A stretch of DNA of 64,000 bases from Clostridia bacterium (GTDB lineage Bacteria > Bacillota > Clostridia > TANB77 > CAG-508), in NCBI GenBank assembly GCA_017517685.1, contig JAFWYK010000003.1, positions 4,860 through 68,859 of the forward strand, in the 5' to 3' direction. The notes under the pieces were generated by a model. That model saw only the letters and a list, made by a program, of their open reading frames with translations. It did not search any database and was not told where the DNA came from. Within the stretch, counting starts at the first letter, position 1. Each line of letters begins with the position of its first letter. Below are positions 43,371 to 58,023 of this stretch, in pieces. The translations under genes and the position numbers were made by a program.

Positions 43371-44037
43371 AAAAGTTGTATTATTTATTGTAGAAGGAAT
43401 TACTGATGAAACAGCTATAGGTCATATTGTAAAAAAATTAAATAAAGATAAAAAAGTATTTTTTCAAATAGTTCGTACAGATATTACTACACAAGATTCT
43501 AGTAATGTAGCAAATATTGAAGTAAAAATTAATAAACAAATTGAATTGTGTATGGAACAAATGCATTTTAAAATTAAAGATATTATAAAAATAATTCATT
43601 TAGTAGATTTGGATGGAGCTTTTGTAGGAGAAGATGTAGTTGTGTATAAAAATATACCTCAAATAGAGTATGATTTAGAACATATTTATACTTCTAATAT
43701 AGAGTTTATACGAAAAAGAAATCAAAAGAAAAAACAAATATTGAATAGATTAAGTTCAACCCAAAGAATTAGAGGTATTCCTTATAGTATTTATTATTTT
43801 TCAACTAATATGGAACATGTTTTTCATAATCAACAAAATGTAAAAGATGATGAAGAAAAATTTAATCTAGCCAATGAAATTCAAGATAAATTTTATGATA
43901 ATCCAGTAAATTTTATTGAATTTATTAACGATGATAAATATGCATTAAAGGATACATATGAGAATACTTGGGAATTTATAAAAAAAGGTAATAATTCATT
44001 AAAAAGATATACTAATTTCAACTTGTATTTTGAATAA
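43360..44037 (+). CDS. Toprim-like protein (RloB / DUF4435 / DUF4276 class)
   Basis: Conserved Glu in VVLFIVEGITDE and DxD in IIHLVDLDGAF give a Toprim E...DxD pattern. An 11-nt overlap with the ATPase gene implies translational coupling. Confidence 0.6.
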   Translation: MQDKKVVLFIVEGITDETAIGHIVKKLNKDKKVFFQIVRTDITTQDSSNVANIEVKINKQIELCMEQMHFKIKDIIKIIHLVDLDGAFVGEDVVVYKNIPQIEYDLEHIYTSNIEFIRKRNQKKKQILNRLSSTQRIRGIPYSIYYFSTNMEHVFHNQQNVKDDEEKFNLANEIQDKFYDNPVNFIEFINDDKYALKDTYENTWEFIKKGNNSLKRYTNFNLYFE

Positions 44038-44191
44038 AGAATATAGGTTTTAATATGATCTAAGAGTATAAGTTAAAATAAATACAAATGATAATTTTAC
44101 ATGAAATACTAAAGAGAAAGCAAATTATTAATGATTTTTTTGCATTAATATTTTGCTTTTTTATATGAAATAAAAAATAGGAGGAATAAAT

Positions 44192-44788
44192 ATGACAAAT
44201 TATCATTATATGACATCAAATGCGAGAATATCAGAAATGTTTGAAAAGATTCAAACAGCTGCACAACCAGCAAAATTTACTCATGAAGTTTTGAAAAATA
44301 TGGGGTTTGCGAGTTCTAATGACAGAGGTTTTATAAATGTTCTAAAAAATTTGCAATTTTTAAATAGTGATGGGGTTCCAACTTCAAATTATAATTTATT
44401 AAGAGATACTAATAAATCAAAGAAAGTGGTCGGAAAACAAATAAAAGAATATTATAAAGAATTATTTGATATTAATGTTAATATGAATAATGCTAGTGAA
44501 GATGAGGTAAAGGGCGTTATTTCTAGAGTTACAGGAAAAGAAGAAAAAGAAGTTAAAAGAATGTATTTAACGTTTAAAGCTTTATGCCAATATGGAGATT
44601 TTTCTGGATTAGAAGATGATAAAAAAATAACAGAAGAAACTCAAGCAATTCCTATAGATAATAAATTGAATGCAGTTGAATTTTCACCTGATTTTCATTA
44701 TAATATCCAAATTCATTTACCTGCTACTACTGATATAACTATTTATAATGCAATATTTAAAAGTATAAAGGAGAATTTATTTAACTAG
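44192..44788 (+). CDS. Hypothetical protein, possibly DUF5343 family
   Basis: N-terminal ...KIQTAAQPAKFTHEVLKNMGFASSNDRGFINVLKNLQFLNSDGVPT resembles my recollection of DUF5343. Its stop lies 1 nt before the next gene. Confidence 0.4.
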   Translation: MTNYHYMTSNARISEMFEKIQTAAQPAKFTHEVLKNMGFASSNDRGFINVLKNLQFLNSDGVPTSNYNLLRDTNKSKKVVGKQIKEYYKELFDINVNMNNASEDEVKGVISRVTGKEEKEVKRMYLTFKALCQYGDFSGLEDDKKITEETQAIPIDNKLNAVEFSPDFHYNIQIHLPATTDITIYNAIFKSIKENLFN

Positions 44789-44789
44789 C

Positions 44790-45368
44790 ATGGATAAGAG
44801 AAGGAAATTAAAAGAATTTGTCTTTAATGGAATGTTAATAAAAGATTCATTAAATGATTTGAAAAAACAAGGAATTAGAGTATTTGAAGATAAAGAAGAT
44901 ATAGATATTGACAAAAGTATGGAAAAAGATTTTAATCCTAAATTATGGTTTGCTGCAAATCAAATGGCTTCAATATATATAGCGTTATATTGTGCAGAAA
45001 ATATGCTTAGAGAATTTATAGTAGATAGATTATCAGAGAGTTATGGAGTTGAATGGTGGGATAAATGTGTTCCCAAAAAAGTTAAAGATGAAGTTCAAAG
45101 ATTAAAAAGCAAAGAAGAAAAAAATAAATATTCATCAAATAGATCTAATAGTAATATTGGATATACGATGTTAGGAAATTTAACTCAGATTATAATTACT
45201 AATTGGGATTATTTTTCAGATATTATTCCTACCCAAGCATGGATTACTTCTAGAATGGAAGATTTAGAGATGTCGAGAAATGTTATTATGCACACTGGAG
45301 TGCTACCGGATATTGAAAGAGAAAGAATTGAAAGTATTGTGCGAGATCTAGTAAAACAATTAGGATAA
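44790..45368 (+). CDS. HEPN-domain protein (Swt1-like type), predicted RNase
   Basis: Rx4H motif in LEMSRNVIMHTG near the C-terminus. An alpha-helical sequence with WW.K.VP..VK is typical of Swt1-like HEPN (recollection). Confidence 0.6.
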   Translation: MDKRRKLKEFVFNGMLIKDSLNDLKKQGIRVFEDKEDIDIDKSMEKDFNPKLWFAANQMASIYIALYCAENMLREFIVDRLSESYGVEWWDKCVPKKVKDEVQRLKSKEEKNKYSSNRSNSNIGYTMLGNLTQIIITNWDYFSDIIPTQAWITSRMEDLEMSRNVIMHTGVLPDIERERIESIVRDLVKQLG

Positions 45369-45461
45369 AAGAATTGAAAAAGTTTGTAAAATTTTAATAT
45401 TATAAATTGCTTGACAAGAAAAAATATAATTAAAATAAAAGATTAAAATAGGAGGATTAAA

Positions 45462-45875
45462 ATGGACTTATTAAAAGAAATGATGCCATATATAGTCTCT
45501 ATTATGACTGCAATAATATCTGGATTATGTTCATATAATGCGTCAAAGAAACAATTTAATCATGAATTGGATGTGATTAAAACTAATAATAAACATGATA
45601 TTAATAAATTGATGGAACAACATAAAATTGATATAGATAATTTAAAAGAAAAACATAAATTAGAAATGGAAATAAAAGAAAAAGAATACCAACATGAAAA
45701 AGAAATGATTGCGTTAAAAAGTAAAGTGTTAATGGATGAAAAAAATCAAGATGTAATGAATAATGCTATGTCAGGGATTCTTGAAAATATTTTTAATGAT
45801 ATTATAACAGGAAAAATGACAGCTAAAGATTTAGAAAATATATCAAAGCAATTTCCTTCACAAGATAAAAAATAA
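45462..45875 (+). CDS. Small membrane-anchored coiled-coil protein
   Basis: N-terminal hydrophobic helix PYIVSIMTAIISGLCSY followed by charged heptad-like repeats. Confidence 0.45.
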   Translation: MDLLKEMMPYIVSIMTAIISGLCSYNASKKQFNHELDVIKTNNKHDINKLMEQHKIDIDNLKEKHKLEMEIKEKEYQHEKEMIALKSKVLMDEKNQDVMNNAMSGILENIFNDIITGKMTAKDLENISKQFPSQDKK

Positions 45876-45882
45876 ATTGTAA

Positions 45883-46446
45883 TATAAATTAAGAACCAAC
45901 TGGAGAGCATTTCAAAACAGATGTGTTAAAGATTTAAATAATCCATTCTATTTAGATGTTGCTATGTTAAATCCAAGTGTAGAAGAAGTAATAGATCTAA
46001 TTCATAGTATGGGAGGAAAAGCATATCTTGCTCATCCATCATCATATTTTGCTAAAGTAGGAACTAAAGAAGAAGTAAAACTAGCATATGATAATACAAT
46101 TAAGTTTGTAAAAGATTTCTTAGCTAAGTTTTCTCCAAAGGTAAATAAGAAAACTCCTATAGATGGAGCTGAAATATATCACCCATCATATTTAGGAAAT
46201 ATAGATGTAATAAGTGAGATAAAAGAGTTAGTACAAGCTTATAGAATAGCATCATCAGGTGGTACTGATATACATGTAGATAAGACACTAGGTAAAGGTG
46301 AAACAGTAAGTTCTGATAGTTTAGATGGAACAGTAGTAAGAAATAAATTACGTAAGTTTAGATTATTAAGAAGAAAAGCAGTAAGTATAAGAGATTTAAA
46401 AAGTAAAGTAATAGATATTAAAGCTAAAGGTAAAGAAAGAGAATAA
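45883..46446 (+). pseudogene. 5'-truncated remnant of a PHP-domain phosphoesterase gene
   Basis: The frame is open from 45883, directly after the stop of the preceding gene, with no RBS. The sequence ...NPFYLDVAMLNPSVEEVIDLIHSMGGKAYLAHP...GAEIYHPS...GGTDIH is a C-terminal PHP half. Confidence 0.55.
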
Positions 46447-46528
46447 AGATTATGTAATCAAAAATAGGAATGAATATCGATTTGCTTTAAGAAAAAATGT
46501 TTGTAGTATATAAATTTTTGAAAATGAA

Positions 46529-46568
46529 AACAGGCAATTATCTAAGAAAATTGCCTGTTGATTTTTTT
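46529..46568 (+). terminator. Rho-independent terminator
   Basis: Stem AACAGGCAAT / ATTGCCTGTT followed by a T run. Confidence 0.75.
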
Positions 46569-46775
46569 CTTGAGAAATGCTAAAATACTTTTGTGAATTG
46601 ACTTTATATTTTAGCAAGTATTATTATGTTATTTCCTATCCTCATAATAACATTTGCTAAGAGCTTTGTGAATTGTTTTAATCAACTTTTAATTTAAAAG
46701 ATATATTTTTGTTAAAATGTAATCAAAATGATAAAGAAAATTCATAGAATGCGAATGAAAAGGAGGTAAAGAAAC

Positions 46776-46994
46776 ATGAAAAAATTAATGGAAGTAACAA
46801 AAGAAACAAAAACAGGAAGAAACATTAGCTTTAGAGATGTTAAAACAAATGAGAAAATGACAAGAACAGAAGTTGTTAGAAAAATTGAAAAAAATTTATC
46901 TCATTATGGTGAAAACTATTATGTTAGAAAACAAAATGGTTTAAAAACACCAGTATCAAAACCAGATGCAAAAACTAAAAATAATTTAGATTAA
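46776..46994 (+). CDS. Small basic protein (72 aa), possibly DUF3892-like
   Basis: AGGAGG RBS. The C-terminal ...YYVRKQNGLKTPVSKPDAKTKNNLD resembles my recollection of DUF3892; weak. Confidence 0.4.
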   Translation: MKKLMEVTKETKTGRNISFRDVKTNEKMTRTEVVRKIEKNLSHYGENYYVRKQNGLKTPVSKPDAKTKNNLD

Positions 46995-47001
46995 CATTAT
47001 A

Positions 47002-47041
47002 AAAGTAACCACAATTGTTATTGCGGTTACTTTTGGTTTTT
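47002..47041 (+). terminator. Hairpin terminator or attenuator between the small ORF and the large ORF
   Basis: Stem AAGTAACC / GGTTACTT followed by TTTGGTTTTTT. Confidence 0.6.
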
Positions 47042-47065
47042 TATAATAGAAAGAGAGGTACTAAT

Positions 47066-48721
47066 ATGGCTAATATTGATATTAACATTTTTAAAGCAGA
47101 AAAATTTTTTTCATATGAAGAAATTATTAGAAACATAAAAGAAAAATTATTTAGAAAGACAACAGATGTTGGAGAATGGAATGGCGAAGTTGCCATAGGA
47201 CATAATGTATTTAAATTATGCGCATTATATGGACATACAACCAATTCGATTGATGATAAAACATGGGAGAAAGGTTTTAAAGAAAATTTTGGATTAGAAA
47301 GTTCTACAGAAAAGAATTCAAATTCTTGCTATGGATATATAATAATTAATAATTCCAAAAATAGATATATATTAACTTTTGGTAGAGGAAATTCGAACAT
47401 AACAGAGTTAATAGATTATGAATTTGGACTTATTATGGCATCAAAAATGCTAAATGAATATAAATTAAAACTACAATCATCAAAATTTTATGGATTAGAT
47501 AAGAATAAATCTATTACGGAGTTTTCATTAGCTCAATTTAGAGGTACTATTGGAGAATCAGTAGATGCTTTAATAGGAGAAGTAGTAGAATACCCAGGAA
47601 GACATTGTATTGAAAATTTACAGGATATTATAGGTAAAGAAGTAAAATTTACAACAAGTGTATTTGTTGATGTTAAATCAGAAAACTTTGATATTGAGAA
47701 TATTTGCAAAATTATTTTAAATATAGAGGAAATTTATAATATATATGGTGAACGTGTATCAATTCCAAGACTTATACGCGTTAAGGAAAGAGAAATAGAA
47801 TTATTAACAGAATTAAATAATAAAGTTAATGAAAAAATAGCATCTAGAGATTTTGAGGATGGTAAAATGTGGATTTCCTTTTATGAAGTAAAAAATTCTC
47901 AAATTTATTTTAGAGATAATATTGATGGTTATAAAATTATGGAGGGAAGAAAAATTTTAGATGAATTGGATAGCATTTCTTTAGATAATATTTCTAATAT
48001 ATTAGAAGATAATAATATTCAAGACATTAATAAAATAAATGTTGTTGTTACTGATTCAGCAGGAAATAATTATAAATGTAAAATTTATGATTTATTAGAA
48101 TATACACTTAATTTGGAAGATCCTAATATTTATTATACATTATCAAGTGGAGTATGGTACAAGTATAATAAAGTATATATGGATACAATAAATCATGAAT
48201 TAGAAAAAATTAAAAGTATTACACAATTTGATGAAAGATATGACTATATAACAGAAGATATAGAACGTTATTCGTCACAACACATTGAGGAGCTTAAAAG
48301 AATTGTTGATCCTCCATATCCGGAATTAAAATATAACTATAAATATGCAAAAGAAAATGATGGAGTTTTATGTGATAGGAATACATCAAGTGGAATTGAA
48401 GTGTGCGATGTATATACAGAATATAACGGATTAACTCATGTGAAAATTGGACAACCTTCAGATTTTATCACTTGTATTAATCAATCAATAGATGGTCTAA
48501 CAGAATATACAGGGAATAAAGTTGCCGTACAGGATTCGTTAAATATTGGTGATACCAATAAAGTAACATTATTGTTAATTACTAAGAATAGAAGTGTTAT
48601 TAGTTCAGAAGATATTACAAAATTTGATTCTTTAAAATTTAAAATAAGATTAATAGAATGGGAAAAATTTGTAAGTGGACATCAATACAATGCTAAAATT
48701 ATAATTGCAAAAAAAGTATAA
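47066..48721 (+). CDS. Large hypothetical protein (551 aa), possibly the TIGR04141/DUF6119 sporadically distributed family
   Basis: AGAGAGG RBS before ATG 47066. The family guess rests only on size, the N-terminal pattern and the defence-island context. Confidence 0.35.
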   Translation: MANIDINIFKAEKFFSYEEIIRNIKEKLFRKTTDVGEWNGEVAIGHNVFKLCALYGHTTNSIDDKTWEKGFKENFGLESSTEKNSNSCYGYIIINNSKNRYILTFGRGNSNITELIDYEFGLIMASKMLNEYKLKLQSSKFYGLDKNKSITEFSLAQFRGTIGESVDALIGEVVEYPGRHCIENLQDIIGKEVKFTTSVFVDVKSENFDIENICKIILNIEEIYNIYGERVSIPRLIRVKEREIELLTELNNKVNEKIASRDFEDGKMWISFYEVKNSQIYFRDNIDGYKIMEGRKILDELDSISLDNISNILEDNNIQDINKINVVVTDSAGNNYKCKIYDLLEYTLNLEDPNIYYTLSSGVWYKYNKVYMDTINHELEKIKSITQFDERYDYITEDIERYSSQHIEELKRIVDPPYPELKYNYKYAKENDGVLCDRNTSSGIEVCDVYTEYNGLTHVKIGQPSDFITCINQSIDGLTEYTGNKVAVQDSLNIGDTNKVTLLLITKNRSVISSEDITKFDSLKFKIRLIEWEKFVSGHQYNAKIIIAKKV

Positions 48722-48750
48722 ATTTTGGATATCAAATTTGAAAAAATCAT

Positions 48751-48785
48751 TTAGAGCTTTTGCAGGTGTAAGAGCTCTAATTTTA
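48751..48785 (+). terminator. Rho-independent terminator
   Basis: Stem TTAGAGCT / AGCTCTAA followed by a T run. Confidence 0.65.
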
Positions 48786-49061
48786 TGTCTTTTATTGTTT
48801 ATTTTACAATTTTAAACATATTTAATGTTTTAGCATATTCTAAAATGATTGAATTAGGAATGGTTTTGATATGTAATAAGGTACTATGAAGTTAAAATAT
48901 GAGATAAGTCAGGTAACAATATTAAAAATGTTTTGTTGTGAAGTATATTGCGATAAAACCGAAAAAATGTTCGCAAAACTCTTGAATAAGAAAATTGTTT
49001 GTGCTAATATGTAATTGGAGTATTGTAAGAGAAAAAATGTATTAAAAAAGGTGGTTATTAA

Positions 49062-50003
49062 ATGGATAAAGAGAAAAACGAAATAATTATATTTGAAAAT
49101 CAAGATGTAAAGTTAGAAGTTAATTTAAAAGAAGAAACAGTTTGGCTTACACAAGCACAAATGGAAATATTATTTGATGTAAAACATGCTACTATAAGTG
49201 AACATATTAGTAACATTTTTAAAGAAGGAGAATTGGATGAAAAAACTTCTGTCGGAATTTCCGACAAAAGTTCAGGAGGAAGAAAAGCTAAAATTTATAA
49301 TCTTGATGTAATTATAAGTGTTGGTTATCGTGTAAAATCAAAAAATGGTACTATTTTTAGACAATGGGCTAATAAAGTATTAAAGGATTATATGTTAAAA
49401 GGTTATGCAGTAAACCAAAGAAGATTAGAGTATTTAGAAAAAACTATTAAATTAATTGATATAGCAAATAGAATTGATGAAAAATTAGAAAATAATGATG
49501 CTAAAGAAATATTAAAAGTAATTGGTGAATATTCAAAAGCATTAGACTTATTAGATGATTATGATCATAAAACATTAAAGAAAATTAAAGGGAATATTGA
49601 TGAAAGAAAAATTGAATATAGTGAATGTGTAAAAATAATAAATACACTAAGATTTAAAGAAGAAAGTCAATTATTTGCAATAGAAAGAGATAAAGGATTA
49701 GAATCTATTATAGGAAATATATATCAAAGTTTTGCTGGACAAGATATTTATAAAAGTATTGAAGAAAAAAGTGCAAACTTTTTATATTTAATAGTAAAAA
49801 ATCATGTGTTTACAGATGGAAACAAGAGAATTGCAGCAACATTATTTATATACTTCTTAAACTTTTATGGAATACTATATAAAAATGAAAAACAAGTTAT
49901 TGATAATAATACATTAACAGCACTTACGTTATTAATTGCTGAATCAAATCCAAGAGAAAAAGAAGTAATTATAGATTTAGTAATGAATTTTTTAAATAAT
50001 TAG
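49062..50003 (+). CDS. RhuM-family N-terminal domain fused to a Fic/Doc domain
   Basis: RhuM core VWLTQAQMEILFDV...ISEHISNIFKEGELDE...YNLDVIISVGYRVKSKNGTIFRQWA. C-terminal Fic/Doc motif HVFTDGNKRIAA. Confidence 0.8.
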   Translation: MDKEKNEIIIFENQDVKLEVNLKEETVWLTQAQMEILFDVKHATISEHISNIFKEGELDEKTSVGISDKSSGGRKAKIYNLDVIISVGYRVKSKNGTIFRQWANKVLKDYMLKGYAVNQRRLEYLEKTIKLIDIANRIDEKLENNDAKEILKVIGEYSKALDLLDDYDHKTLKKIKGNIDERKIEYSECVKIINTLRFKEESQLFAIERDKGLESIIGNIYQSFAGQDIYKSIEEKSANFLYLIVKNHVFTDGNKRIAATLFIYFLNFYGILYKNEKQVIDNNTLTALTLLIAESNPREKEVIIDLVMNFLNN

Positions 50004-50014
50004 TAATAGAAAAT

Positions 50015-50049
50015 AAAAGAGTGGTATAAAAATACCACTCTTTTATTTT
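50015..50049 (+). terminator. Rho-independent terminator
   Basis: 12-bp stem AAAGAGTGGTAT / ATACCACTCTTT followed by a T run. Confidence 0.8.
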
Positions 50050-50068
50050 TACAATTATTATTGTTTTG

Positions 50069-50097
50069 TGAAATATTTTGAGATTTTTATGGACTCT
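50069..50097 (+). promoter_or_regulatory. ECF-type promoter-like motif, copy A (orphan)
   Basis: TGAAATATTTTGA (from 50069) and GGACTCT (50091-50097), offset 22 nt. No ORF follows for ~530 nt. Confidence 0.5.
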
Positions 50098-50629
50098 AAT
50101 ATATGTAGGAAAAAAAGGAAAATAAAATTGAGTTTGCTATAATTATTTATAGTAATACATTGTAAGAAAAAGATAATCATGATTTATATAGAGTAATACC
50201 TATATTTAAAAGTGATAACTTATTAACATCTGGAGTATTAATATAGGCAAAAGATGTTGAAGTTAATGAAGAAGAAATAGAAATTTGCGTTAATTGGATA
50301 CAACTATTGCACAAACAATAAAAAAAGAATAAACAAGTACAAATTCATCTAGTTCTTTAACATAAACTAAAACTAAGCTTGCTACTATAATTAAACTATC
50401 TAAAACACTAGAAACTACCGCAATTCAATTAGCATTAGTAGTGCTAGTGCCTGTTTTTACATTAATAGTAAACACAAAAATGTTTTAGATTTTAAGAACT
50501 GGTAAAAAGTTTCATAATAATCCATGATGTAGAGTAATATGAATGATTCATTACAAGTTACTAGATTGCAAGCAGAAGCTAACGAATTTAGTGCGTGTAA
50601 AAATGTTATTAAAAGGGGGAAATGTAAAA

Positions 50630-53275
50630 ATGGAACATCTTAATTTACCATCAAGAATTTTTATGTATTCGATTTGTGCATCAATCGAATATGATTTAAA
50701 AGTTCATATACTATCATATTGCGAAGGAAAAATAAATTTTTCACAAGGTATGATAGATAAAGCTTATCAAAGATTAAATAGTAAGGATGAAAAAAGTGAT
50801 GAAAATATTTTAAATATGTTAGATTTATCAGATTATATATGCATATTAGTAGATAATCCCGTAAAGTATAAATTAAATAATTCTAATGTAGCAAAAATTA
50901 TTAAATATTTCGAAAAAATAATACCTATTAGAAATAGAGTAATGCATATTAAACCGTTAGAATTGGGGGATAAGGCAACATTACAAGAAGTAATGGAAGG
51001 TATTGATAAGGATATAAAATTTATTAATTGGGTAGAAGTAATAAAAAATAGAAAATTATTAGATAATAGTCCTGAAGAATTATTAATAAAATTTAAACCA
51101 AATAAATTTAATGATAATTATTATCATAATTTACCTGAAGCTGAATTTGACGATACAGGATATATTGGAAGAAAAAAAGAGCGAGCAGAGATTAAAGAAC
51201 TACTATTACAAGATAAATATCCAGTAATATCAATAATAGGAAATGGTGGAATAGGTAAGACAGCAATAATAGTAAAAACATTATATGACTTAATCGATGA
51301 TGCTAGTAATCCATATGAAGCAATAATTTGGATATCATTGAAAGCAAGAACTTTGTCTAATGGTGATTTCGTTGAAATTAAAGACTCTATAAAAACTACA
51401 ACTGAATTTATAAAAAATGCGGAGAAAGAGGTTGTAATGAATGAGAATTTATCTGCTGAAGATAATATTTTGAACTTTATGAAAACTTTTAAAACTTTGC
51501 TAGTAATAGATAATTTAGAAACAATTAATGATCAAGAAATAAATACATTTATAAAGAAAATTCCAAAAGAATCTAGAGTTTTGATCACCTCTAGAACAGG
51601 TTTAGGGGAATTAGAATGTAGATACAAGTTAGAAGGAATGAATAAAAAAGATGCAATACAGTATTATAGAGAACTTTCTAAGTATTATGGATTAAAATTA
51701 CATAATAAAACAGATGAAGATATAAGCTTAATCGTTGAAAAAGTATTATATTCAAATCCTTTATCAATAAAATGGTATATAACTGGCGTATATAATGGTA
51801 TTAGAGAAGAAGAAATTCAAAATAATAAAGAAAGTTTAATCGAATTTTGCATGTCAAATGTTTATGATAAATTATCGGATGAATCAAAAGAAATTTTGAG
51901 ATTATTTCAAATAGAAGATTATGAAATGTCTTATGGTGAAATTTCATATTATATTGATGGAGAAGAAATTGCAATGAAGAAAGCAATTAATGAGTTAAGT
52001 GCAACAAATATGATAACCTTAAAAGATGGTTGTTATCAAATTAATATGATGGCTAAAGATTATTTAAGAATAATACAAAAAATTGATTCTGAATTTATGA
52101 ATGTTATTAAAGATAAAAGATTAAAACTAAATGGAATGCTTCAAAATATAACCGTAAAAAAAGAAAATTCTAAATTAAACCCTGGCACAATAAGTTATGA
52201 TTATAATGACAAAGATCAAAAAATTGCAGCTATATATTTGTATAAAGCTTTAGAATATGGAAAAGAAAGAGATTCGGAAAATGCGTTGAAATTTGTAAAT
52301 AAAGCAGAAGAAATAGCTCCGAATTTTTCAGAATGTTATAAAGTTAAAGCGTTTTTATATGCTAATTTTGATAATTTGTCAGAGGCGATTAAAAACTATC
52401 AGATTGCGGTAAATAAATGTAAAACAGACTTAGAGTTTAGTACAGTGTATTATGCATATGCTTCATTTTATACTGTTGTTATGAATGATAACCAAAAAGC
52501 TCTTGAATTAATTAAATTAGCAGAAAACTACATGAAAGATGATATAGAAATAAGTTTACAAAAAGCAAGAATATTATCGAGATTAGGAAGATTTCAAGAA
52601 TCAGAAGATATATTAATAAAAACAGATTATAAAAATATAAATGCTGATAAAATTAGAAATGTTAGAGCTAAAGCTATAGGTGATTTATATAGATTATGGT
52701 CTGAGATATATGGATATAGGGACGATGATCAAAAATTAGATAAGTTAAAAAAAGGTATAAACGGAGTAATAGAATTAAATAATGTAGGAAATATTGATAA
52801 AAAAACTTATGCCACATTATTAGAGTTATTAAAGGAATTATCATATATGTTTTATAATAATGATGCGATGAAACTATTGCTACAAGTATTATCAGAATAT
52901 AAGAGTCAATTAAAGTCTTTAACTGGAAATACAATGAAAAGTATTGAAAAAATAATACTATCTCATAAAAATGAAATTAATAGTGATATATATAAGGAAT
53001 TGGAAAAAATAGTAATAGATTATAATAGAATAGCTAAAAAAATTGAGAGTGTAAATAAAGGTATTGTTGCATATATAAATGATAAATATGGTTTTATTTC
53101 TAATAGTATAAATAAATCAATATTTTTTATAAGAAATAATTTGAAAGAAAATGTTAATGTAGGAGACATTGTTAAATTTGATAGTTATGTTAGTAGCAAA
53201 GGAATTGGAGCGATGAATATAAGAAAAACTGGCGAAAATTTGATGGATTTTTATGATATCGAAGAAAATGATTAA
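50630..53275 (+). CDS. STAND NTPase: N-terminal HEPN-like domain, NB-ARC ATPase, TPR-like repeats and a C-terminal cold-shock-like OB domain
   Basis: - HEPN: Rx4H motif (IPIRNRVMH).
- NB-ARC: P-loop ISIIGNGGIGKTAI, Walker B LLVIDNLE, RVLITSRT and NPLSIKW.
- Sensor: helical repeats of about 350 aa.
- C-terminus: GIVAYINDKYGFISNS...FFIRNNL...VGDIVKFD...AMNIRK.
- Start: GGGGGA RBS before ATG 50630. Confidence 0.75.
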   Translation: MEHLNLPSRIFMYSICASIEYDLKVHILSYCEGKINFSQGMIDKAYQRLNSKDEKSDENILNMLDLSDYICILVDNPVKYKLNNSNVAKIIKYFEKIIPIRNRVMHIKPLELGDKATLQEVMEGIDKDIKFINWVEVIKNRKLLDNSPEELLIKFKPNKFNDNYYHNLPEAEFDDTGYIGRKKERAEIKELLLQDKYPVISIIGNGGIGKTAIIVKTLYDLIDDASNPYEAIIWISLKARTLSNGDFVEIKDSIKTTTEFIKNAEKEVVMNENLSAEDNILNFMKTFKTLLVIDNLETINDQEINTFIKKIPKESRVLITSRTGLGELECRYKLEGMNKKDAIQYYRELSKYYGLKLHNKTDEDISLIVEKVLYSNPLSIKWYITGVYNGIREEEIQNNKESLIEFCMSNVYDKLSDESKEILRLFQIEDYEMSYGEISYYIDGEEIAMKKAINELSATNMITLKDGCYQINMMAKDYLRIIQKIDSEFMNVIKDKRLKLNGMLQNITVKKENSKLNPGTISYDYNDKDQKIAAIYLYKALEYGKERDSENALKFVNKAEEIAPNFSECYKVKAFLYANFDNLSEAIKNYQIAVNKCKTDLEFSTVYYAYASFYTVVMNDNQKALELIKLAENYMKDDIEISLQKARILSRLGRFQESEDILIKTDYKNINADKIRNVRAKAIGDLYRLWSEIYGYRDDDQKLDKLKKGINGVIELNNVGNIDKKTYATLLELLKELSYMFYNNDAMKLLLQVLSEYKSQLKSLTGNTMKSIEKIILSHKNEINSDIYKELEKIVIDYNRIAKKIESVNKGIVAYINDKYGFISNSINKSIFFIRNNLKENVNVGDIVKFDSYVSSKGIGAMNIRKTGENLMDFYDIEEND

Positions 53276-53299
53276 TTTTTTAAAATAGGGTATTAGGAT

Positions 53300-53355
53300 G
53301 GGCTACTGTATCGAAAGGTATGCTGTTAAGAGTGATACAGTAGCCCTCTTTTTTT
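53300..53355 (+). terminator. Rho-independent terminator
   Basis: 13-bp stem GGGCTACTGTATC / GATACAGTAGCCC followed by T7. Confidence 0.85.
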
Positions 53356-53492
53356 AGATTAGTCACCAACTGAACTAAACTTTGTGTATAATAATATAGA
53401 AAATCAGATTTGTAAAGAAAAATCTGATTTTTTTACTATTTTTCCTATAGATTTATAAAATTTAGAAAAAAATTCAATTTTTTGAAAAAAAT

Positions 53493-53521
53493 TGAAATAT
53501 TTTGAATACTATAGGGACTCT
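53493..53521 (+). promoter_or_regulatory. ECF-type promoter-like motif, copy B
   Basis: TGAAATATTTTGA (from 53493) and GGACTCT (53515-53521), offset 22 nt, 40 nt upstream of ATG 53561. Confidence 0.55.
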
Positions 53522-53560
53522 TTAATATTTGTGTAAAAAAATATAAAGGAGGAAAAGAAA

Positions 53561-54079
53561 ATGGTTGCAACGCAACAAAAAGTTTATTTTAGTTATTCTC
53601 ATAGGGAAGGAAAGAAGTTTAAAGTATTCTTAGAAGAAAATTTTAAGGACTTAATTTCAAACAAAACAGTAAGTGATGATGAGCTTAATCCAAAAAGAGG
53701 AGCAGACTACAGAGAAAAATTAGTTAATGAGGAGTATATTGACGAAAATACTTTACTTATAGTATTAGTAGGAAAAAGTACAAGATGTAAAAAACATGTA
53801 GATTGGGAAATATATACAGCCTTAAAAAATAATTGTTATGTAATTGGTGTAATATTACCAGAAATAAAAATGCCAAACGGAAGACTTGTATATGGTGATA
53901 TTCCAGCAAGACTTGCTGATAATGTTAAAAGTGGTTATAGTAAATTATATACATGGAATTATTTTATAAACTATTTTGAAGAAATTTTAGATACAGCTTA
54001 TCAAAACAAAATTGATTTAAAAGATAATATTAATAATAAAAGATCAATTTGGTTAACAACTGATGAAGAATACTGTTAA
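53561..54079 (+). CDS. TIR-like domain protein (DUF1863 / ThsB-like type)
   Basis: KVYFSYSH start and KKHVDWEIYTAL motif typical of the bacterial TIR-like DUF1863 family (recollection); AAGGAGG RBS. Confidence 0.55.
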   Translation: MVATQQKVYFSYSHREGKKFKVFLEENFKDLISNKTVSDDELNPKRGADYREKLVNEEYIDENTLLIVLVGKSTRCKKHVDWEIYTALKNNCYVIGVILPEIKMPNGRLVYGDIPARLADNVKSGYSKLYTWNYFINYFEEILDTAYQNKIDLKDNINNKRSIWLTTDEEYC

Positions 54080-54126
54080 AATAACATAAGAAAAAAGTAT
54101 TATAAATTTTTAAATGGAGGGTTTTT

Positions 54127-54222
54127 ATGGTTATTTTTATAATAGGAGCAAAAGAACTTCATAATGAAAAAATAAGGAACAAAAATTTAATAAATACAGA
54201 AAGATATAAGAAAAGAAACTAG
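54127..54222 (+). CDS. Possible 31-aa small ORF (MVIFIIGAKELHNEKIRNKNLINTERYKKRN)
   Basis: GGAGGG RBS 8 nt upstream; it ends inside the terminator stem. It could be a gene fragment. Confidence 0.25.
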   Translation: MVIFIIGAKELHNEKIRNKNLINTERYKKRN

Positions 54223-54253
54223 TATTAATTTTTAATTAGTACTAGTTTTTTTG
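54216..54253 (+). terminator. Rho-independent terminator
   Basis: Stem AAACTAGTA / TACTAGTTT followed by a T run. Confidence 0.7.
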
Positions 54254-54298
54254 TTTGTAAAAAAGTATTTTTTAATATATGATAAAATTAAATTTTAA

Positions 54299-54327
54299 TG
54301 AAATATATTAAACTATTTTAGGACTCT
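54299..54327 (+). promoter_or_regulatory. ECF-type promoter-like motif, copy C (upstream of the sigma gene)
   Basis: TGAAATATATTAA (from 54299) and GGACTCT (54321-54327), offset 22 nt, 45 nt upstream of GTG 54372. Confidence 0.6.
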
Positions 54328-54371
54328 TTATAGGTGAAAGAGTTAAATAGAGAGAAAGGAGGTAATAAATT

Positions 54372-54899
54372 GTGGAAGAGTTAATTAAACGTGCTCAAAA
54401 AGGTGATCAAGAAGCATTTACAGCATTAGTAAAATCGATGAAAGATGACTTATATAAAATTGCAAAGACGAGAATATCTAATGAAGATGATATGCAAGAT
54501 GCAATACAAGAAACGATGCTTGAAATGTTTAAATCTATTAAGAAACTGCGAGATCCGAAATTATTTAAGAAATGGATTATTACTATTCTAATTAATAAGT
54601 GTAATAGAATTTATAGAAGAAAATACAAGACTGATTTATCATATGAAGAATTAAATTTTGAAGATTTTATAACGGCAACATCAAATGATGTAGAAAGTGA
54701 CTTAGAATTCTATGAACTACTAAAAGATTTAAAATATGAAGAAAGAATAATTCTGATTCTATATTATAAAGAAGAATATACTGTTAAAGAGATTAAAAGT
54801 ATATTAAATATGAAAGTGAGTACAATAAATACACATTTATTCAGAGCGAGAGTTAAGCTGAAGGAAAAATTAGAGAAAGGTGGTGAGCTACATGGATAA
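54372..54899 (+). CDS. ECF-type (group 4) sigma-70 family sigma factor
   Basis: Region 2 (DDMQDAIQETMLEMFKSIKKLRDPKLFKKWIITILINKCNRIYRR) and region 4 HTH (YTVKEIKSILNMKVSTINTHLFRARVKLKE); 175 aa; GTG start after GGAGG. Confidence 0.85.
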   Translation: MEELIKRAQKGDQEAFTALVKSMKDDLYKIAKTRISNEDDMQDAIQETMLEMFKSIKKLRDPKLFKKWIITILINKCNRIYRRKYKTDLSYEELNFEDFITATSNDVESDLEFYELLKDLKYEERIILILYYKEEYTVKEIKSILNMKVSTINTHLFRARVKLKEKLEKGGELHG

Positions 54900-56040
54900 T
54901 TATGAAAAACGAATAAAAGAAATTTTAGATAGACCTATAACCGTAAGTGCACAATTTGAATATGCAATTGATACAGCATTTTTAAATAAAGCTAAAAAAT
55001 CAAATAATGTTTTTAATAATTTTTCTTTAAAATTTGCAACAACAGTAGTATGTTTACTATTAACATTTTCTACAGCGGTATTTGCAGCATATATGATTTA
55101 TGAAAATATATGGAAAGATCCAGAGAGAACTTCAAGAAAACAAAGAGAAGAAAGTGTGTTAGCTCCTATCGATGAAGAAGAGTTAAATAATATTATTAGC
55201 GAAGAAAAAGCTAAAACAATTGCTACTACAATTATTGGAAATTTAGGTTATGAGAATACAACAATTTCTGAAATTAAAATAAATAGAAGTTATGAAAATA
55301 ATGAAGATTTATATTATCATATAGTATTTGATAACATAACAATTCAATTAGATGCTAAGACTGGTGTAATTGATTATATTGAAAACAGAGAAACTAAGAA
55401 TATGATTAAAGAGAATGATCTAATTGATAAAGCTGAGGCGGTAGAAATTGCTAATAGTATTTATAAGAAAGTAGGAATTGGAAATATTGATAATTATATA
55501 GTTTTATCTAGTGAAGAAAGAGATGGCCTAGATGATACATATAAAAACAAATATTGGAAAGTAATATATGGTCTTGCGGAAGATGATATAAAATTAGATG
55601 ATAAAATATTTATGATAACATTTAAGATTATTGATGGGAATGCTTATATATACAAACTATCTTATAGAAGATTAAATGATTTGGTTAACAATCCAATTGT
55701 AATTACAGAAGATGAAGCAATAAAAATTGCTATTGAAAAAGAGAAAGAGTTTAGCAATTTAGAAATATCAAAAGTGAGTGCAGAATTAGATATGGAAATG
55801 ATGAATGAATTTATTTATATATTGGAAAACGAGAAAGAAAACGATAGTGGAAATGTACATGTAGAAGATGTAATAAGAAATGTATGGGTTGTCTATATTG
55901 AACATAAAAAAGATAATAAACCGAGAAATACGAATTTATTAACGGTTAGACAAGAATTTAATAAGAAATATTATATTGATGCAACTACTGGAGAAATAAT
56001 TGGTGGAAAAGAAATGGAATATTTTAATAGAAAAAAATAG
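54892..56040 (+). CDS. Putative anti-sigma factor: short cytoplasmic N-terminus, one TM helix and extracytoplasmic PepSY-like repeats
   Basis: The start overlaps the sigma stop by 8 nt. TM helix is FSLKFATTVVCLLLTFSTAVFAAYMIY. PepSY-like endings are LDAKTGVIDYIE and YYIDATTGEIIGG. No zinc-binding HxxxCxxC motif. Confidence 0.65.
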   Translation: MDNYEKRIKEILDRPITVSAQFEYAIDTAFLNKAKKSNNVFNNFSLKFATTVVCLLLTFSTAVFAAYMIYENIWKDPERTSRKQREESVLAPIDEEELNNIISEEKAKTIATTIIGNLGYENTTISEIKINRSYENNEDLYYHIVFDNITIQLDAKTGVIDYIENRETKNMIKENDLIDKAEAVEIANSIYKKVGIGNIDNYIVLSSEERDGLDDTYKNKYWKVIYGLAEDDIKLDDKIFMITFKIIDGNAYIYKLSYRRLNDLVNNPIVITEDEAIKIAIEKEKEFSNLEISKVSAELDMEMMNEFIYILENEKENDSGNVHVEDVIRNVWVVYIEHKKDNKPRNTNLLTVRQEFNKKYYIDATTGEIIGGKEMEYFNRKK

Positions 56041-56062
56041 TTTTATTACTAAATAATAAAAA

Positions 56063-56087
56063 AAGTGGCCACTTATAGAGGCCACTT
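56063..56087 (-). terminator. Rho-independent terminator of the - strand secreted-protein gene
   Basis: Stem AAGTGGCC (56063-56070) / GGCCACTT (56080-56087). The U-run is on the - strand only (A7 on the + strand side). Confidence 0.7.
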
Positions 56088-56088
56088 C

Positions 56089-56104
56089 GAAAGACAAGAA
56101 GGAT
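56089..56104. repeat. Left arm of a perfect 16-bp inverted repeat
   Basis: GAAAGACAAGAAGGAT is the exact reverse complement of 56633-56648. Confidence 0.95.
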
Positions 56105-56137
56105 TGCGTTAATTAGTTATGCTGCTTGTAAAAGGGT

Positions 56138-56605
56138 TTAGTAAATTTCGTGTCCATAATCCACATCTGCTACTCTATAGTTTCCGTTAGGATTGTAGGA
56201 AACACTGCTGATGTCAAAAAAGATTTGAATCTTTTGGCCGGCAGTTACAGGAAGATTGATGTGAACTTGAGGGACAGCAGCTTCTTCACTAACCGAACCA
56301 CTGGCAAGAACGTTACCGTTCAAATCACGAACTTGCACGGTAAGCTTTACTGGCGGGCAACCAGAAGGTTCCATGTCGGAACGACCATACACTTCTGCAA
56401 CAAGATGAAGCGTGCCGCTCACACCCATTGTTTTAACAGGAGTGAGATTGTTGTTGGTTACAGTGATGGTTCCTTCTTCAACCCAACCGCTATACCAGGT
56501 TTCAACACCGGCAGCAAAAGCCTGGGTAGAGAAGGCGGTGATAGCCATAACTGTGACAAGCACGAAGGCTAAGAGTTTTCTCGGAATACTAGAAGTTTTC
56601 GTCAT
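56138..56605 (-). CDS. Small secreted protein of unknown function (155 aa)
   Basis: Signal peptide MTKTSSIPRKLLAFVLVTVMAITAFSTQAFA|AG; beta-rich mature part; AAAGGAG RBS; 48% GC in a spot count. Confidence 0.7.
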   Translation of the reverse strand: MTKTSSIPRKLLAFVLVTVMAITAFSTQAFAAGVETWYSGWVEEGTITVTNNNLTPVKTMGVSGTLHLVAEVYGRSDMEPSGCPPVKLTVQVRDLNGNVLASGSVSEEAAVPQVHINLPVTAGQKIQIFFDISSVSYNPNGNYRVADVDYGHEIY

Positions 56606-56632
56606 GATTGCATCTCCTTTATTATCTCAGAT

Positions 56633-56648
56633 ATCCTTCTTGTCTTTC
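56633..56648. repeat. Right arm of a perfect 16-bp inverted repeat
   Basis: ATCCTTCTTGTCTTTC lies 28 nt upstream of the - strand start codon. Confidence 0.95.
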
Positions 56649-56775
56649 TAATCAAAAATCACGTGTAGTTACTCGTGATATTGATTTCATATCATGCTAA
56701 AAGCATATTGCTATTATAAAAGATTTCTTATTTTTATTCTCAAAATAGGAAAAAAAGGAAAAAATTGTAAATTTT

Positions 56776-56804
56776 TGAAATATTTTGATATCATTATGGA
56801 CTCT
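56776..56804 (+). promoter_or_regulatory. ECF-type promoter-like motif, copy D
   Basis: TGAAATATTTTGA (from 56776) and GGACTCT (56798-56804), offset 22 nt, 18 nt upstream of ATG 56822 with GGAGG in between. Confidence 0.55.
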
Positions 56805-56821
56805 AATAAACGGAGGTTATA

Positions 56822-57535
56822 ATGAAGAATTGTTTAATAATAGCAGATAATAATGCAAACGTAGTAAATTTAATTAATTTTTTTGCTTGTAAGAAGTTAG
56901 ATATTAAAATATTAGGAATAACTCTTAGTATAGAAAAGAGTATTAATATTATAAAAGAAAATAAAGTTGATATGATTATTATTGATTATTCAAATAATAG
57001 ATTTGATTTAAGAGAATTATTTTCTGAACTAGAAAAAATGAATTCAACTCTTTTAAAGAAATCTATAATAGTAATTAATGATGATAATAAACTTAAAGCG
57101 GAGTTAGAATCTAATAAATACATTAATGCATTTTTAATAAAACCAGTACTATATAAGGAATTATATAAAATTATTATAAAAATGTTTAACACATATAATA
57201 GTAAAGACTTATATCAAAGTATTTTAAATGAATTATCTAAACTTTCATTTAAAACAAAATATGCAGGTACGAAATATATGGGTGAGTGTATATATGAAGT
57301 ATTCATTTCGGGAAAATATTATGAATATAGTTTCTTTAATGAGATATTACCGATTATAGCAAAAAGATATAATAAATCAGAAGACAGTATATATGGAAAT
57401 ATAAAACAGTCAATTAAAAAGATGACAAATGTTTGTGATCAAGATGTAATTGTAGACTATTTTAAATTTTGTGAATTTGAAAGGCCAAAGCCTAAACAAA
57501 TCATAGATAGAGTTATAGAAAACATTAAAAAATAA
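56822..57535 (+). CDS. Spo0A-like orphan regulator: degenerate receiver domain plus Spo0A_C-type DNA-binding domain
   Basis: - Receiver-like IIADNNAN (DN instead of DD), MIIIDYS and FLIKPV.
- The C-terminal half follows the Spo0A_C pattern (KYAGTKYMGECIYEV...ILPIIAKRYNKSEDSIYGNIKQSIKK...RPKPKQIIDRVIENI).
- 237 aa. Confidence 0.6.
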   Translation: MKNCLIIADNNANVVNLINFFACKKLDIKILGITLSIEKSINIIKENKVDMIIIDYSNNRFDLRELFSELEKMNSTLLKKSIIVINDDNKLKAELESNKYINAFLIKPVLYKELYKIIIKMFNTYNSKDLYQSILNELSKLSFKTKYAGTKYMGECIYEVFISGKYYEYSFFNEILPIIAKRYNKSEDSIYGNIKQSIKKMTNVCDQDVIVDYFKFCEFERPKPKQIIDRVIENIKK

Positions 57536-57600
57536 GAGATATATTAATATGAATGAAGTTGGAGCTTTTTGCTCCACATATTAATATGTCTCTTATTTTT
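57534..57600 (+). terminator. Long compound hairpin terminator
   Basis: 18-bp outer stem AAGAGATATATTAATATG / CATATTAATATGTCTCTT with one G-U pair, enclosing GGAGC-TTTTT-GCTCC, followed by a T run. Confidence 0.8.
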
Positions 57601-57800
57601 TATAATATTTAATTTTTATTAGAAAAAAGGAACAGATTAATAGGCGCTACCAGAAGTAGGATAATGCATAGTGCCCACAAGCCTATTCCCTTTTTGACTC
57701 TCATAGGAGTCATTTAGTTTAAACAAACCAAATCTGTTATAGATATTAACATTGCTTTTTTATGATGTAAAGCATTTTTTATAAAAATCTTAAAAAACTA

Positions 57801-57820
57801 GTCGACAAAATTCGACAAAA
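57801..57820. promoter_or_regulatory. Two tandem 0A-box-like sites at 10-bp spacing
   Basis: GTCGACAAAA (57801-57810) and TTCGACAAAA (57811-57820). TTCGACA is the reverse complement of the Spo0A box TGTCGAA. Confidence 0.4.
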
Positions 57821-58023
57821 GAAAGATGATGTTCAGTTGTAAGAATGGCTTTGCGATTTTGCGATGGTGGATTGAAAGATAAATAATAAACATATTATTT
57901 GAAAGTTTATGAGAAAAATTGGAAAAAAATAACATTATATTGAGATTTATGTATGATAGACAAATGTTTATAGATATGATAATATTTGAGTGTAAAGATT
58001 TGTTTTTAAAGTGAGAAGAAAAA

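Follow-up and report, generated by a model that had tools for sequence, protein, structure and literature searches.

The subject of this study is a stretch of 64,000 nucleotides (nt; referred to below as the window) from the metagenome-assembled genome (MAG) of an uncultured gut Clostridia bacterium, in which a short two-block motif recurs in front of genes for an extracytoplasmic function (ECF) sigma factor, a Spo0A_C-type response regulator and defence-type proteins; the evidence is computational throughout. The window has a GC content of about 25% and carries a defence island at 41.9–54 kb. A preliminary description of this DNA had recognized RhuM-Doc, HEPN-STAND and TIR-like proteins, an ECF sigma factor with a PepSY-repeat anti-sigma factor and a Spo0A-like regulator, and these gene assignments hold, the proteins being RhuM-Fic, an NB-ARC/TPR STAND protein, a ThsB-type TIR, an ECF sigma factor, a membrane anti-sigma factor with PepSY repeats and a Spo0A_C-type response regulator. 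The four copies of the motif, named A to D in order of position, are probably promoters for the ECF sigma factor encoded at 54372–54899, which would tie its own operon, the regulator and defence-type genes together.

The pattern TGAAATATWTTRA-N9-GGACTCT was found four times in a search of the 64-kb window, on the + strand only (50069–50097, 53493–53521, 54299–54327 and 56776–56804), and had no match in 100 dinucleotide-preserving shuffles of the window sequence. The looser pattern TGAAA-N17-GGACTCT, with one mismatch allowed, recovered the identical four sites, with 0.21 expected. A weight matrix built from 18 non-redundant sites of the window and of related loci, in which the spacer may vary by 1 base, scored the four sites at 24–28 bits; the runner-up in the 64 kb scored 10.3 bits, which is chance level, the shuffles yielding 2.4 matches of at least 10 bits each. 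The claim of four two-block sites at a fixed offset with free spacers was borne out by all three analyses, and in the weight-matrix scan, run here over the window, only these four sites exceed chance. The spacers of copies A–D are unlike, and their flanks cannot be aligned except for the boxes and an upstream T-rich stretch. In the 29-nt element, the −35 TGAAAT, directly followed by a T-tract, is separated by 16 nt from the −10 GGACTCT; measured from the last base of GGACTCT, the start codon lies 40 nt away for the TIR gene, 45 nt for the sigma gene and 18 nt for the Spo0A_C-type gene. This geometry fits the Bacillus ECF promoter class, in keeping with the TGAAA-type ECF −35 proposed earlier. 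A sigma-A promoter was considered and rejected: TTGAAA resembles a −35 element, but there is no TATAAT-like box 17 nt on, and the GC-rich GGACTCT is the most conserved part. The motif likewise fits neither the sporulation-sigma nor the sigma-54 promoter consensus. The exact 20-base motif was also searched for in the GTDB species representatives, JGI metagenomes and IMG/VR (in IMG/VR with a looser pattern as well), collections from which this lineage is absent, and gave six matches; these were judged to be chance occurrences because they lie on unrelated contigs of 32–46% GC without a sigma homologue.

Contigs encoding orthologues of the sigma factor were fetched and numbered with the prefix L (99, 68, 67, 65, 65, 62, 61 and 60% sigma identity), and eight clades were compared, represented by the window, L015, L029, L009, L032, L019, L035 and L023 (sigma 60–100% identical). 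TGAAAT-N16-GGACTCT stands 35–68 nt before the sigma start codon in all eight, with the minor variants TGAAAG, TGTAAT, TGACTCT, and GGCTCT with a spacer shorter by 1 base; the alignment of the eight sigma promoters leaves TGnAA and G(A)CTCT as the sole invariant parts. A four-gene module, made up of sigma factor, anti-sigma factor, p155 (a secreted protein) and Spo0A_C regulator, is kept in five clades, and in each of these five the regulator gene is preceded by the motif at 15–22 nt; in L009/L010 the regulator gene lies on the opposite strand and the motif is still in front of it. In L029, L032 and L019 the motif is found before the sigma gene although no regulator is nearby. The motif therefore tracks the sigma factor and not the regulator, as it is kept where sigma and anti-sigma factors occur without a nearby regulator. 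Co-occurrence in related genomes, which the preliminary description had named as a check, was thus found with the sigma factor in eight clades and with the regulator in five. The specificity of the motif was assessed over 341,625 nt from 22 non-redundant loci, scanned on both strands with a threshold of 14 bits, and all of the matches at or above this threshold are intergenic, each aimed at a downstream gene. Scattered non-promoter copies, inside genes or reversed, were absent from these 342 kb of related loci; phylogenetic footprinting and the comparison of strains strongly support the earlier view of the motif as a promoter rather than a dispersed repeat.

Several features of the related loci stand beside this conservation. 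In L035 the −35 element is TGTAAT at both the sigma and the regulator promoters, and the L035 sigma factor has unique changes in its sigma4 recognition helix (ENNIRTYLYRAR versus ENTINTHLFRAR). Sibling strains encode a second ECF sigma factor (L001 3395–3969, also in L002–L007) of 172 amino acids (aa), 53% identical and located inside a variable region, together with a 246-aa anti-sigma factor and a motif of its own, TGCAAC-N17-TACTCT; this pair does not occur in the window. The −35 variants TGTAAT and TGCAAC are reminiscent of sigma X and sigma M. In L009–L014 (sigma 65% identical) the sigma/anti-sigma/Spo0A_C module and RhuM lie in a large-serine-recombinase element, which splits murA (EPSP_synthase family) into pieces of 245 and 127 aa. 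In L019, TGAATA-N16-GGACTCT (5045–5079, 17 bits) precedes a gene for a VanY-type D,D-carboxypeptidase just upstream of the sigma gene.

Copy C (54299–54327, + strand), the putative autoregulatory promoter conserved in the eight clades, lies 45 nt before the sigma gene (54372–54899, + strand), so that both the distance and the footprint agree with the autoregulated ECF factor that had been proposed. The 175-aa product contains sigma2 and sigma4 domains only (Sigma70_r2, 2e-12; Sigma70_r4_2, 1.7e-10; Sigma70_ECF, 1.2e-7), with no match to region 3. It scores 80.5 bits against the sigma70-ECF superfamily model TIGR02937 (cutoff 42.9); its best NCBIfam match, TIGR02954 (Sig70_famx3), scores 125.3 bits and is below the cutoff of 188.5, and the named Bacillus models SigV, SigW and SigM give scores of 78, 78 and 85 against cutoffs of 190, 209 and 190, respectively. 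Judged from these model scores, the sigma factor is a relative of TIGR02954 and of the Bacillus ECF families (SigV/W/M/X/Y) and a member of none of them.

The anti-sigma gene (54892–56040, + strand) begins with an ATG at 54892 that overlaps the sigma stop codon at 54899, and the sigma/anti-sigma pair is present in eight of the eight clades. Its product has N-terminal helices, a single transmembrane (TM) helix at approximately residues 45–74 and three extracellular PepSY-type modules. In the predicted structure (pLDDT 79) one TM helix and three alpha/beta modules, each a helix on a four-stranded sheet with a D..TGE-type motif at its end, are seen, and the closest folds found by Foldseek are the C-terminal triple PepSY of YpeB (5boi, E = 2.8e-8) and the vibriolysin propeptide (1.4e-4). 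The Pfam PepSY match is borderline (24.7 bits against a cutoff of 24) and occurs in two of the eight orthologues; KKYYIDATTGEIIGG is invariant. The model thus presents the ectodomain as a predicted YpeB-like triple PepSY array. The zinc-binding motif HxxxCxxC was not found in the sequence of the N-terminal 45 aa.

Copy D (56776–56804, + strand; 28.4 bits) lies 18 nt before the gene for an orphan response regulator whose DNA-binding domain is of the Spo0A_C type (56822–57535, + strand; 237 aa; Spo0A_C 2.1e-8, Response_reg 0.003). The proposal that copy D drives this Spo0A-like regulator gains from the confirmed distance and from the motif before the orthologue in five clades. The regulator has residues D9, D55 and K107, with N10 at the second acidic position. 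Spo0A 0A boxes were considered as an explanation and rejected, single TGTCGAA sequences being no more frequent in the window than expected by chance. A 0A-box-like tandem, TGTCGAA-TTT-TGTCGAC, is found in the intergenic region after the regulator gene (57801–57817, − strand, 10 nt from start to start) and has no link to the motif.

Copy B (53493–53521, + strand; 26.4 bits) lies 40 nt before the gene for a ThsB-type TIR protein (53561–54079, + strand; 172 aa; PF08937 2.9e-11; PADLOC ThsB models 1e-7 to 1e-4), which contains a DWEI motif with a catalytic-type Glu. The position of the promoter is kept in a second species, L015–L018, as TGAAATATTTTGAATAACATAGTGACTCT, and this conservation in two species together with the confirmed 40-nt distance strengthens the earlier assignment of copy B to the TIR gene. 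The TIR protein is 99–100% identical in conspecific strains and 62% identical in the L015 species. Between copy B and the terminator hairpin (approximately 54218–54253), the operon consists of the TIR gene and one further open reading frame (ORF; 54127–54222, + strand) of 31 codons, which has a strong GGAGGG ribosome-binding site (RBS), is called in all strains and looks, from its sequence context, to be co-transcribed with the TIR gene. This ORF is kept in the second species with a shared basic C-terminal half, IRNKNLIN.ERY.KR, and may encode a small peptide that partners the TIR protein. No model match to a ThsA partner (SIR2-type or Macro/SLOG-type) was found among the scanned island proteins; since the TIR gene stands without ThsA, this is not Thoeris in its canonical form.

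Copy A (50069–50097, + strand; 28.4 bits) reads toward the HEPN-STAND gene as the apparent promoter of a decayed membrane-nuclease gene. The region 50069–50176 is 90% identical in a blastn comparison to the promoter and leader of an intact Endonuclease_NS gene in L002, and the following remnant (50164–50612, + strand, about 450 nt) comprises an internal piece (50164–50296) and the 3′ end (50299–50612, with the old stop codon at 50610–50612) of the same gene, matching L002 3347–3479 and 3588–3900 as well as L015–L018. From these correspondences of promoter and leader, internal piece and 3′ end, the window holds a nuclease pseudogene. The intact L002 nuclease (493 aa, 2 TM helices, PF13930 domain) has homologues in L015–L018, and in the relatives the gene directly after the cassette promoter encodes a membrane-anchored Endonuclease_NS; a promoter head of the copy A type is found on differing cassettes in L005, L002 and L017. 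The HEPN-like (Rx4H)/NB-ARC STAND/TPR/cold-shock protein (50630–53275, + strand; 881 aa) starts at ATG 50630 behind an AAGGGGG RBS, 18 nt past the old nuclease stop codon, and gene callers give the same 881 aa in L043, L045 and L048. It has an NB-ARC match (4.4e-11), TPR matches, the Rx4H HEPN-like motif IRNRVMH and a C-terminal cold-shock domain; in PADLOC it matched no Avs model, and only CSD_V was found (6.7e-5). The site of copy A and its position before the HEPN-STAND gene stand as described earlier, but it is not a dedicated STAND promoter, as the decayed nuclease gene lies between.

In conspecific strains (sigma 98–100% identical), the core of TIR gene, 31-codon ORF, sigma, anti-sigma, p155 and regulator is constant, and the DNA upstream of the TIR gene consists of variable cassettes, headed by promoters 48–135 nt before the first cassette gene. 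The cassettes include a PARIS-like AriA/AriB-like pair (L004, L007), PDC-S06 (L003), PDC-S53 with PDC-S49 (L005), PDC-M49A/B (L040), a ThsB-TIR/caspase/ThsB set (L001, with the variant GGATTCT) and, in L002, the membrane-anchored Endonuclease_NS followed by a Hachiman-like pair with a HamB-like helicase. Because the spacers of the cassette promoters differ, a single fixed promoter in the flank does not suffice to explain how the cassettes are read.

A polypurine module, TAGGAAAAAAAGGAAAA, had been described as a second element shared by copies A and D with an antisense copy near copy B. These occurrences are confirmed: an exact copy lies at 50106–50122 (+ strand), in the initial transcribed region of the cassette-type promoters, and is kept 3′ of the promoter in the window, L005, L002 and L017; a second exact copy (56746–56762, + strand) precedes the −35 element of copy D, between the divergent p155 and regulator genes, where similar purine-rich tracts precede the regulator promoter in L015, L023 and L035; and a copy with two mismatches lies on the − strand near copy B (53431–53447). 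The tract is not a promoter element, however, because its position is inconsistent: it follows the boxes in A, precedes them in D and is antisense near B.

A hyper-divergent mosaic block of about 1.3 kb (55300–56580) takes in the anti-sigma ectodomain and the p155 gene, with the terminator. Among conspecific strains, this block shows 51–90% nucleotide identity versus 96–100% in its flanks, and a synonymous divergence (dS) of 0.3–2.1 versus 0.03–0.1 in the flanking genes. The ectodomain occurs in at least seven alleles, and the sigma-binding N-terminal 75 aa are 99–100% identical. The polymorphism pattern of the block resembles that of pherotype or phage-receptor loci.

The p155 gene (56138–56605, − strand) is a conserved member of the sigma module and encodes a secreted jelly-roll protein of 155 aa, whose family comprises 47 clusters without a Pfam domain. 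Its GC content is 45%, with 40% at third codon positions (GC3) against a GC3 of 12–19% in the neighbouring genes; three clades share the high GC content, and a fourth has a lower one. The predicted structure (pLDDT 84) gave generic jelly-roll matches only, with TM-scores below 0.5, and for this reason no function was drawn from the fold. The protein co-varies with the ectodomain alleles (Mantel r = 0.78), a correlation that linkage confounds and in which co-evolution is inseparable from it. An inverted repeat of 13–19 nt brackets the p155 gene in five clades, with arms at 56086–56104/56633–56651 in the window, 7760–7774/8305–8319 in L015, 7777–7794/8321–8338 in L023, 7691–7703/8238–8250 in L035 and 7883–7898/8429–8444 in L010; its sequence differs among the clades, both arms changing together, and all contigs were seen in one orientation. 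It could be either a DNA-inversion site or a means of pairing the 5′ and 3′ untranslated regions of the mRNA through a purine-rich, Shine–Dalgarno-like arm and a pyrimidine-rich arm. In the p155 leader (56658–56679, sense of the − strand), between the p155 promoter and the RBS, a hairpin with a U-run is found (ATCACG-N10-CGTGAT-TTTT), with a compensatory change in L015 (ATCACC/GGTGAT) and analogous hairpins in L023 and L035; RNAalifold gave weak support over four sequences, and the hairpin may be an attenuator.

The genes of the island at 41991–50003 lack the motif; they encode an AbiL/AriA-like ATPase (41991) with a 225-aa partner, PDC-M34A/B (44192/44790; DUF5343 with HEPN_Swt1), a DUF6119 protein (47015) and RhuM-Fic (PDC-S23; 49062). 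A megablast search of 49000–58000 against PLSDB and INPHARED gave no match that would indicate a plasmid or phage origin, and no RNA genes were found in the window with Rfam (at gathering thresholds) or ARAGORN. Elsewhere in the window, at 6308–8491 on the − strand, a gene for a 727-aa AAA+/Peptidase_M41 (FtsH-like) protein lies in a segment of 40–43% GC.

Taken together, these features suggest an envelope-level switch, formed by the sigma/anti-sigma pair, that would raise the expression of part of the defence island. At rest, the co-translated anti-sigma factor would tether the sigma factor to the membrane through its short cytoplasmic N-terminus; a signal at the extracellular triple-PepSY domain would lead to proteolysis of the anti-sigma factor and to release of the sigma factor, and the adjacent secreted p155 may be part of the sensing. 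The free sigma factor would then be expected to act at copy C on its own operon, in positive feedback, at copy D on the Spo0A_C-type response regulator, as a second regulatory tier, at copy B on the ThsB-type TIR gene and the 31-codon ORF, and at copy A on a cassette that in this strain consists of the decayed surface-nuclease gene followed by the gene for the HEPN-STAND NTPase. The computation shows the motif with its statistics, conservation, co-variation, orientation and position, together with the domain architectures and the polymorphism among strains; from these we infer transcription that depends on the sigma factor, the mechanism of release, the kind of signal and a benefit against phages.

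A number of points weigh against this reading. The organism is an uncultured MAG and the case rests on computation. The −10 block GGACTCT departs from CGTC/CGTA, the common form, and the −35 has AAT at its end instead of AAC. Copy D would give a leader of just about 10 nt ahead of the RBS. Copy A is parted from the STAND gene by the pseudogene, over about 530 nt that include a weak terminator-like hairpin (50432–50460), and an extended −10-like sequence, TGCTATAAT, lies about 40 nt 3′ of copy A (50135–50143; TGTTATAAT in L017). This site may be a sigma-A promoter, perhaps constitutive, in tandem with the ECF promoter, and alone it could express the STAND gene. The weight-matrix scan found no motif at the AbiL/AriA-like, PDC-M34, DUF6119 and RhuM-Fic genes of the same island, and three of the sigma clades have no motif-bearing defence gene in the fetched DNA, the extra target in L019 being the VanY-type enzyme. 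From the island genes without the motif and from the VanY target, the link to defence appears to be lineage-specific, and the ancestral role may be related to the envelope.

Some of the same points belong to an alternative in which the promoters are real and serve an ordinary regulon of cell-envelope stress or of mobile genetic element (MGE) maintenance, the defence genes having come to lie behind them through a neighbouring recombination hotspot, without any dedicated gating of immunity. The extra motif before the VanY-type carboxypeptidase in L019 would suit such a regulon, as would the ancestral first gene behind copy A, an extracellular membrane-anchored nuclease and hence an envelope protein. 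The fetched DNA of L029, L032 and L019 shows the sigma promoter only (with the VanY site in L019), several defence genes of the island have no motif, and in L009–L014 the module rides on the serine-recombinase element with RhuM that splits murA. On the other hand, at least seven distinct defence-type cassettes each have a promoter copy of their own, the promoter of the ThsB-type TIR gene is kept in two species, and the hypervariable sensor ectodomain shows the pattern expected of an arms-race interface. We consider this alternative unlikely, though it deserves the most weight among the rival explanations.

The two other explanations deny that the motif is a promoter. It might be the operator of a DNA-binding regulator such as the co-located Spo0A_C-type response regulator, which belongs to the module in five clades and whose own gene carries the motif, so that autoregulation is possible; polypurine tracts also lie beside some copies. 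However, the motif stays before the sigma gene in clades in which the locus has no regulator, it is unlike the 0A box, and the recognition helix of the regulator, as read from its sequence, differs from that of Spo0A. Changes in the −35 element accompany changes in sigma4, and the asymmetric boxes, the fixed 16-nt gap, the single orientation and the short, constant distance to the start codon are the geometry of a promoter and not of an operator, which makes an operator improbable. Still less probably, the motif marks cassette boundaries, either as a dispersed repeat or as a site of recombination (integron attC-like, or resembling a miniature inverted-repeat transposable element). Such a site would account for the motif at the 5′ edge of swappable cassettes and for the head of about 55 nt which, with the polypurine tract, is common to different cassettes and after which the homology between the window and L005 stops at once; this promoter head may well be a substrate for homologous recombination. 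Against it, conservation is limited to two short boxes around a free spacer, the motif lacks inverted symmetry, no integrase is found in or beside the array in the window and the cassettes have no common 3′ site. The sigma and regulator genes, which are not mobile, moreover keep the motif across clades at 60% protein identity, with no intragenic or reverse copies in the 342 kb and no repeat in the public collections, from which this lineage is absent.

If the four sites are promoters of the sigma factor, a further and more speculative step can be considered, to which we give only modest credence: the polymorphic PepSY–p155 pair may be a strain-specific extracellular sensor of phage particles, lytic enzymes or a kin signal, which, via the sigma factor and the regulator, would pre-arm interchangeable defence cassettes, each carrying a portable promoter head about 55 nt long. 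Were this so, immunity genes would share a modular transcriptional bus of the plug-and-play kind, its input shaped by an arms race. The combination of polymorphic sensor and portable promoter was not found described for DdvS/DdvA (see below) or other systems in the literature consulted, and its novelty is put forward tentatively.

The ECF promoters of Bacillus subtilis (sigma W, X, M and V) follow tGAAACnTTTt-N-CG(A/T)C, with a T-tract proximal to the −35 element (PMC5758882). The motif of the window resembles them in its TGAAAc-type −35, in the T-tract directly after it (TGAAAT-A-TTTT), in the spacer of about 16 nt, in the autoregulated operon and in the short GC-containing −10 (GGAC, compared with CGAC for sigX); it differs in a −35 that ends in AAT and in a longer conserved −10 block, GGACTCT, without a CGT core. 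The T-tract of the Bacillus type explains why the first block is conserved over 13 nt (TGAAAT-A-TTTT-GA) and not 6 (PMC5758882).

Other ECF-type sigma factors have also been placed in an anti-phage setting. In the CalpL–CalpT–CalpS system and the craspase-associated sigma/anti-sigma pairs of type III CRISPR, a cytoplasmic immune protease reportedly cleaves a soluble anti-sigma factor after infection has been sensed (10.1101/2024.05.08.593097; cited in PMC11506125). Like these, the pair in the window would be an ECF-like sigma/anti-sigma pair wired into anti-phage immunity; unlike in them, the anti-sigma factor here is a predicted membrane sensor and defence genes are the candidate targets. In the sigma X-dependent phage tolerance of B. 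subtilis, an ECF sigma factor is reportedly activated under phage attack and is protective (10.1101/2021.02.16.428622). The likeness to the present locus lies in an ECF sigma factor in an anti-phage setting. The output in B. subtilis is reportedly a modification of the cell surface, unlike the candidate targets here, which are defence genes of the TIR, STAND and nuclease types.

For the sensing side, the sigma E system offers a parallel, in which RseB binds the ectodomain of RseA and controls its cleavage; tandem PepSY domains of the YpeB type work by binding a partner enzyme (YpeB–SleB). By analogy with RseA–RseB, a secreted protein encoded beside the membrane anti-sigma factor could bind the ectodomain and control cleavage. 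Unlike RseB, p155 is a jelly-roll protein without detectable similarity to RseB, and its link to the anti-sigma factor consists of synteny and of a joint hypervariability that is confounded by linkage. The hypervariable PepSY ectodomain and p155 nevertheless provide a concrete candidate for the sensing interface.

For nearly all phage cues known to date, sensing takes place in the cytoplasm, and the timing of defence-island expression is poorly understood. The closest precedent is the DdvS/DdvA pair of Myxococcus xanthus, an ECF sigma factor and a transmembrane anti-sigma factor that drive four promoters in a CBASS/CRISPR island and confer phage resistance, in the report of which envelope-level phage sensing is named as an open problem (PMC11506125). 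The preliminary description had regarded the arrangement in the window as undescribed, which was overstated in view of this published precedent (PMC11506125). In both cases, a single-pass membrane anti-sigma factor and an autoregulated ECF sigma factor are encoded within a defence island, four sigma-type promoters (here judged from the motif alone) serve the sigma operon and neighbouring defence operons, and an extracytoplasmic early warning is proposed to prime intracellular immunity. The present locus differs in its host lineage (Clostridia instead of Myxococcota), in its sensor (a YpeB-like triple PepSY and no zinc-binding domain, whereas in DdvA the anti-sigma domain binds zinc and the periplasmic part is TPR-CHAT), in its cargo (ThsB-type TIR, HEPN-STAND and swappable candidates instead of CBASS and type III-B CRISPR) and in the Spo0A_C-type regulator within its regulon. 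The two systems are analogous and not homologous, and what appears new here is the combination of cassette-borne promoters with a hypervariable sensor domain and its linked secreted protein. The locus would be a second, independent case of an envelope switch, in a Gram-positive lineage and in a compact form of one sigma factor, one anti-sigma factor and a 29-nt promoter with at least eight natural target cassettes; being small and fully specified, it is directly testable in a heterologous host, and the promoter with its sigma factor could serve as an orthogonal expression part in low-GC Firmicutes. It also suggests a general rule by which cassettes enter a regulon by bringing their promoter. 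Set beside DdvS/DdvA, a real ECF regulon that is a variant of a known logic is computationally well supported for the window.

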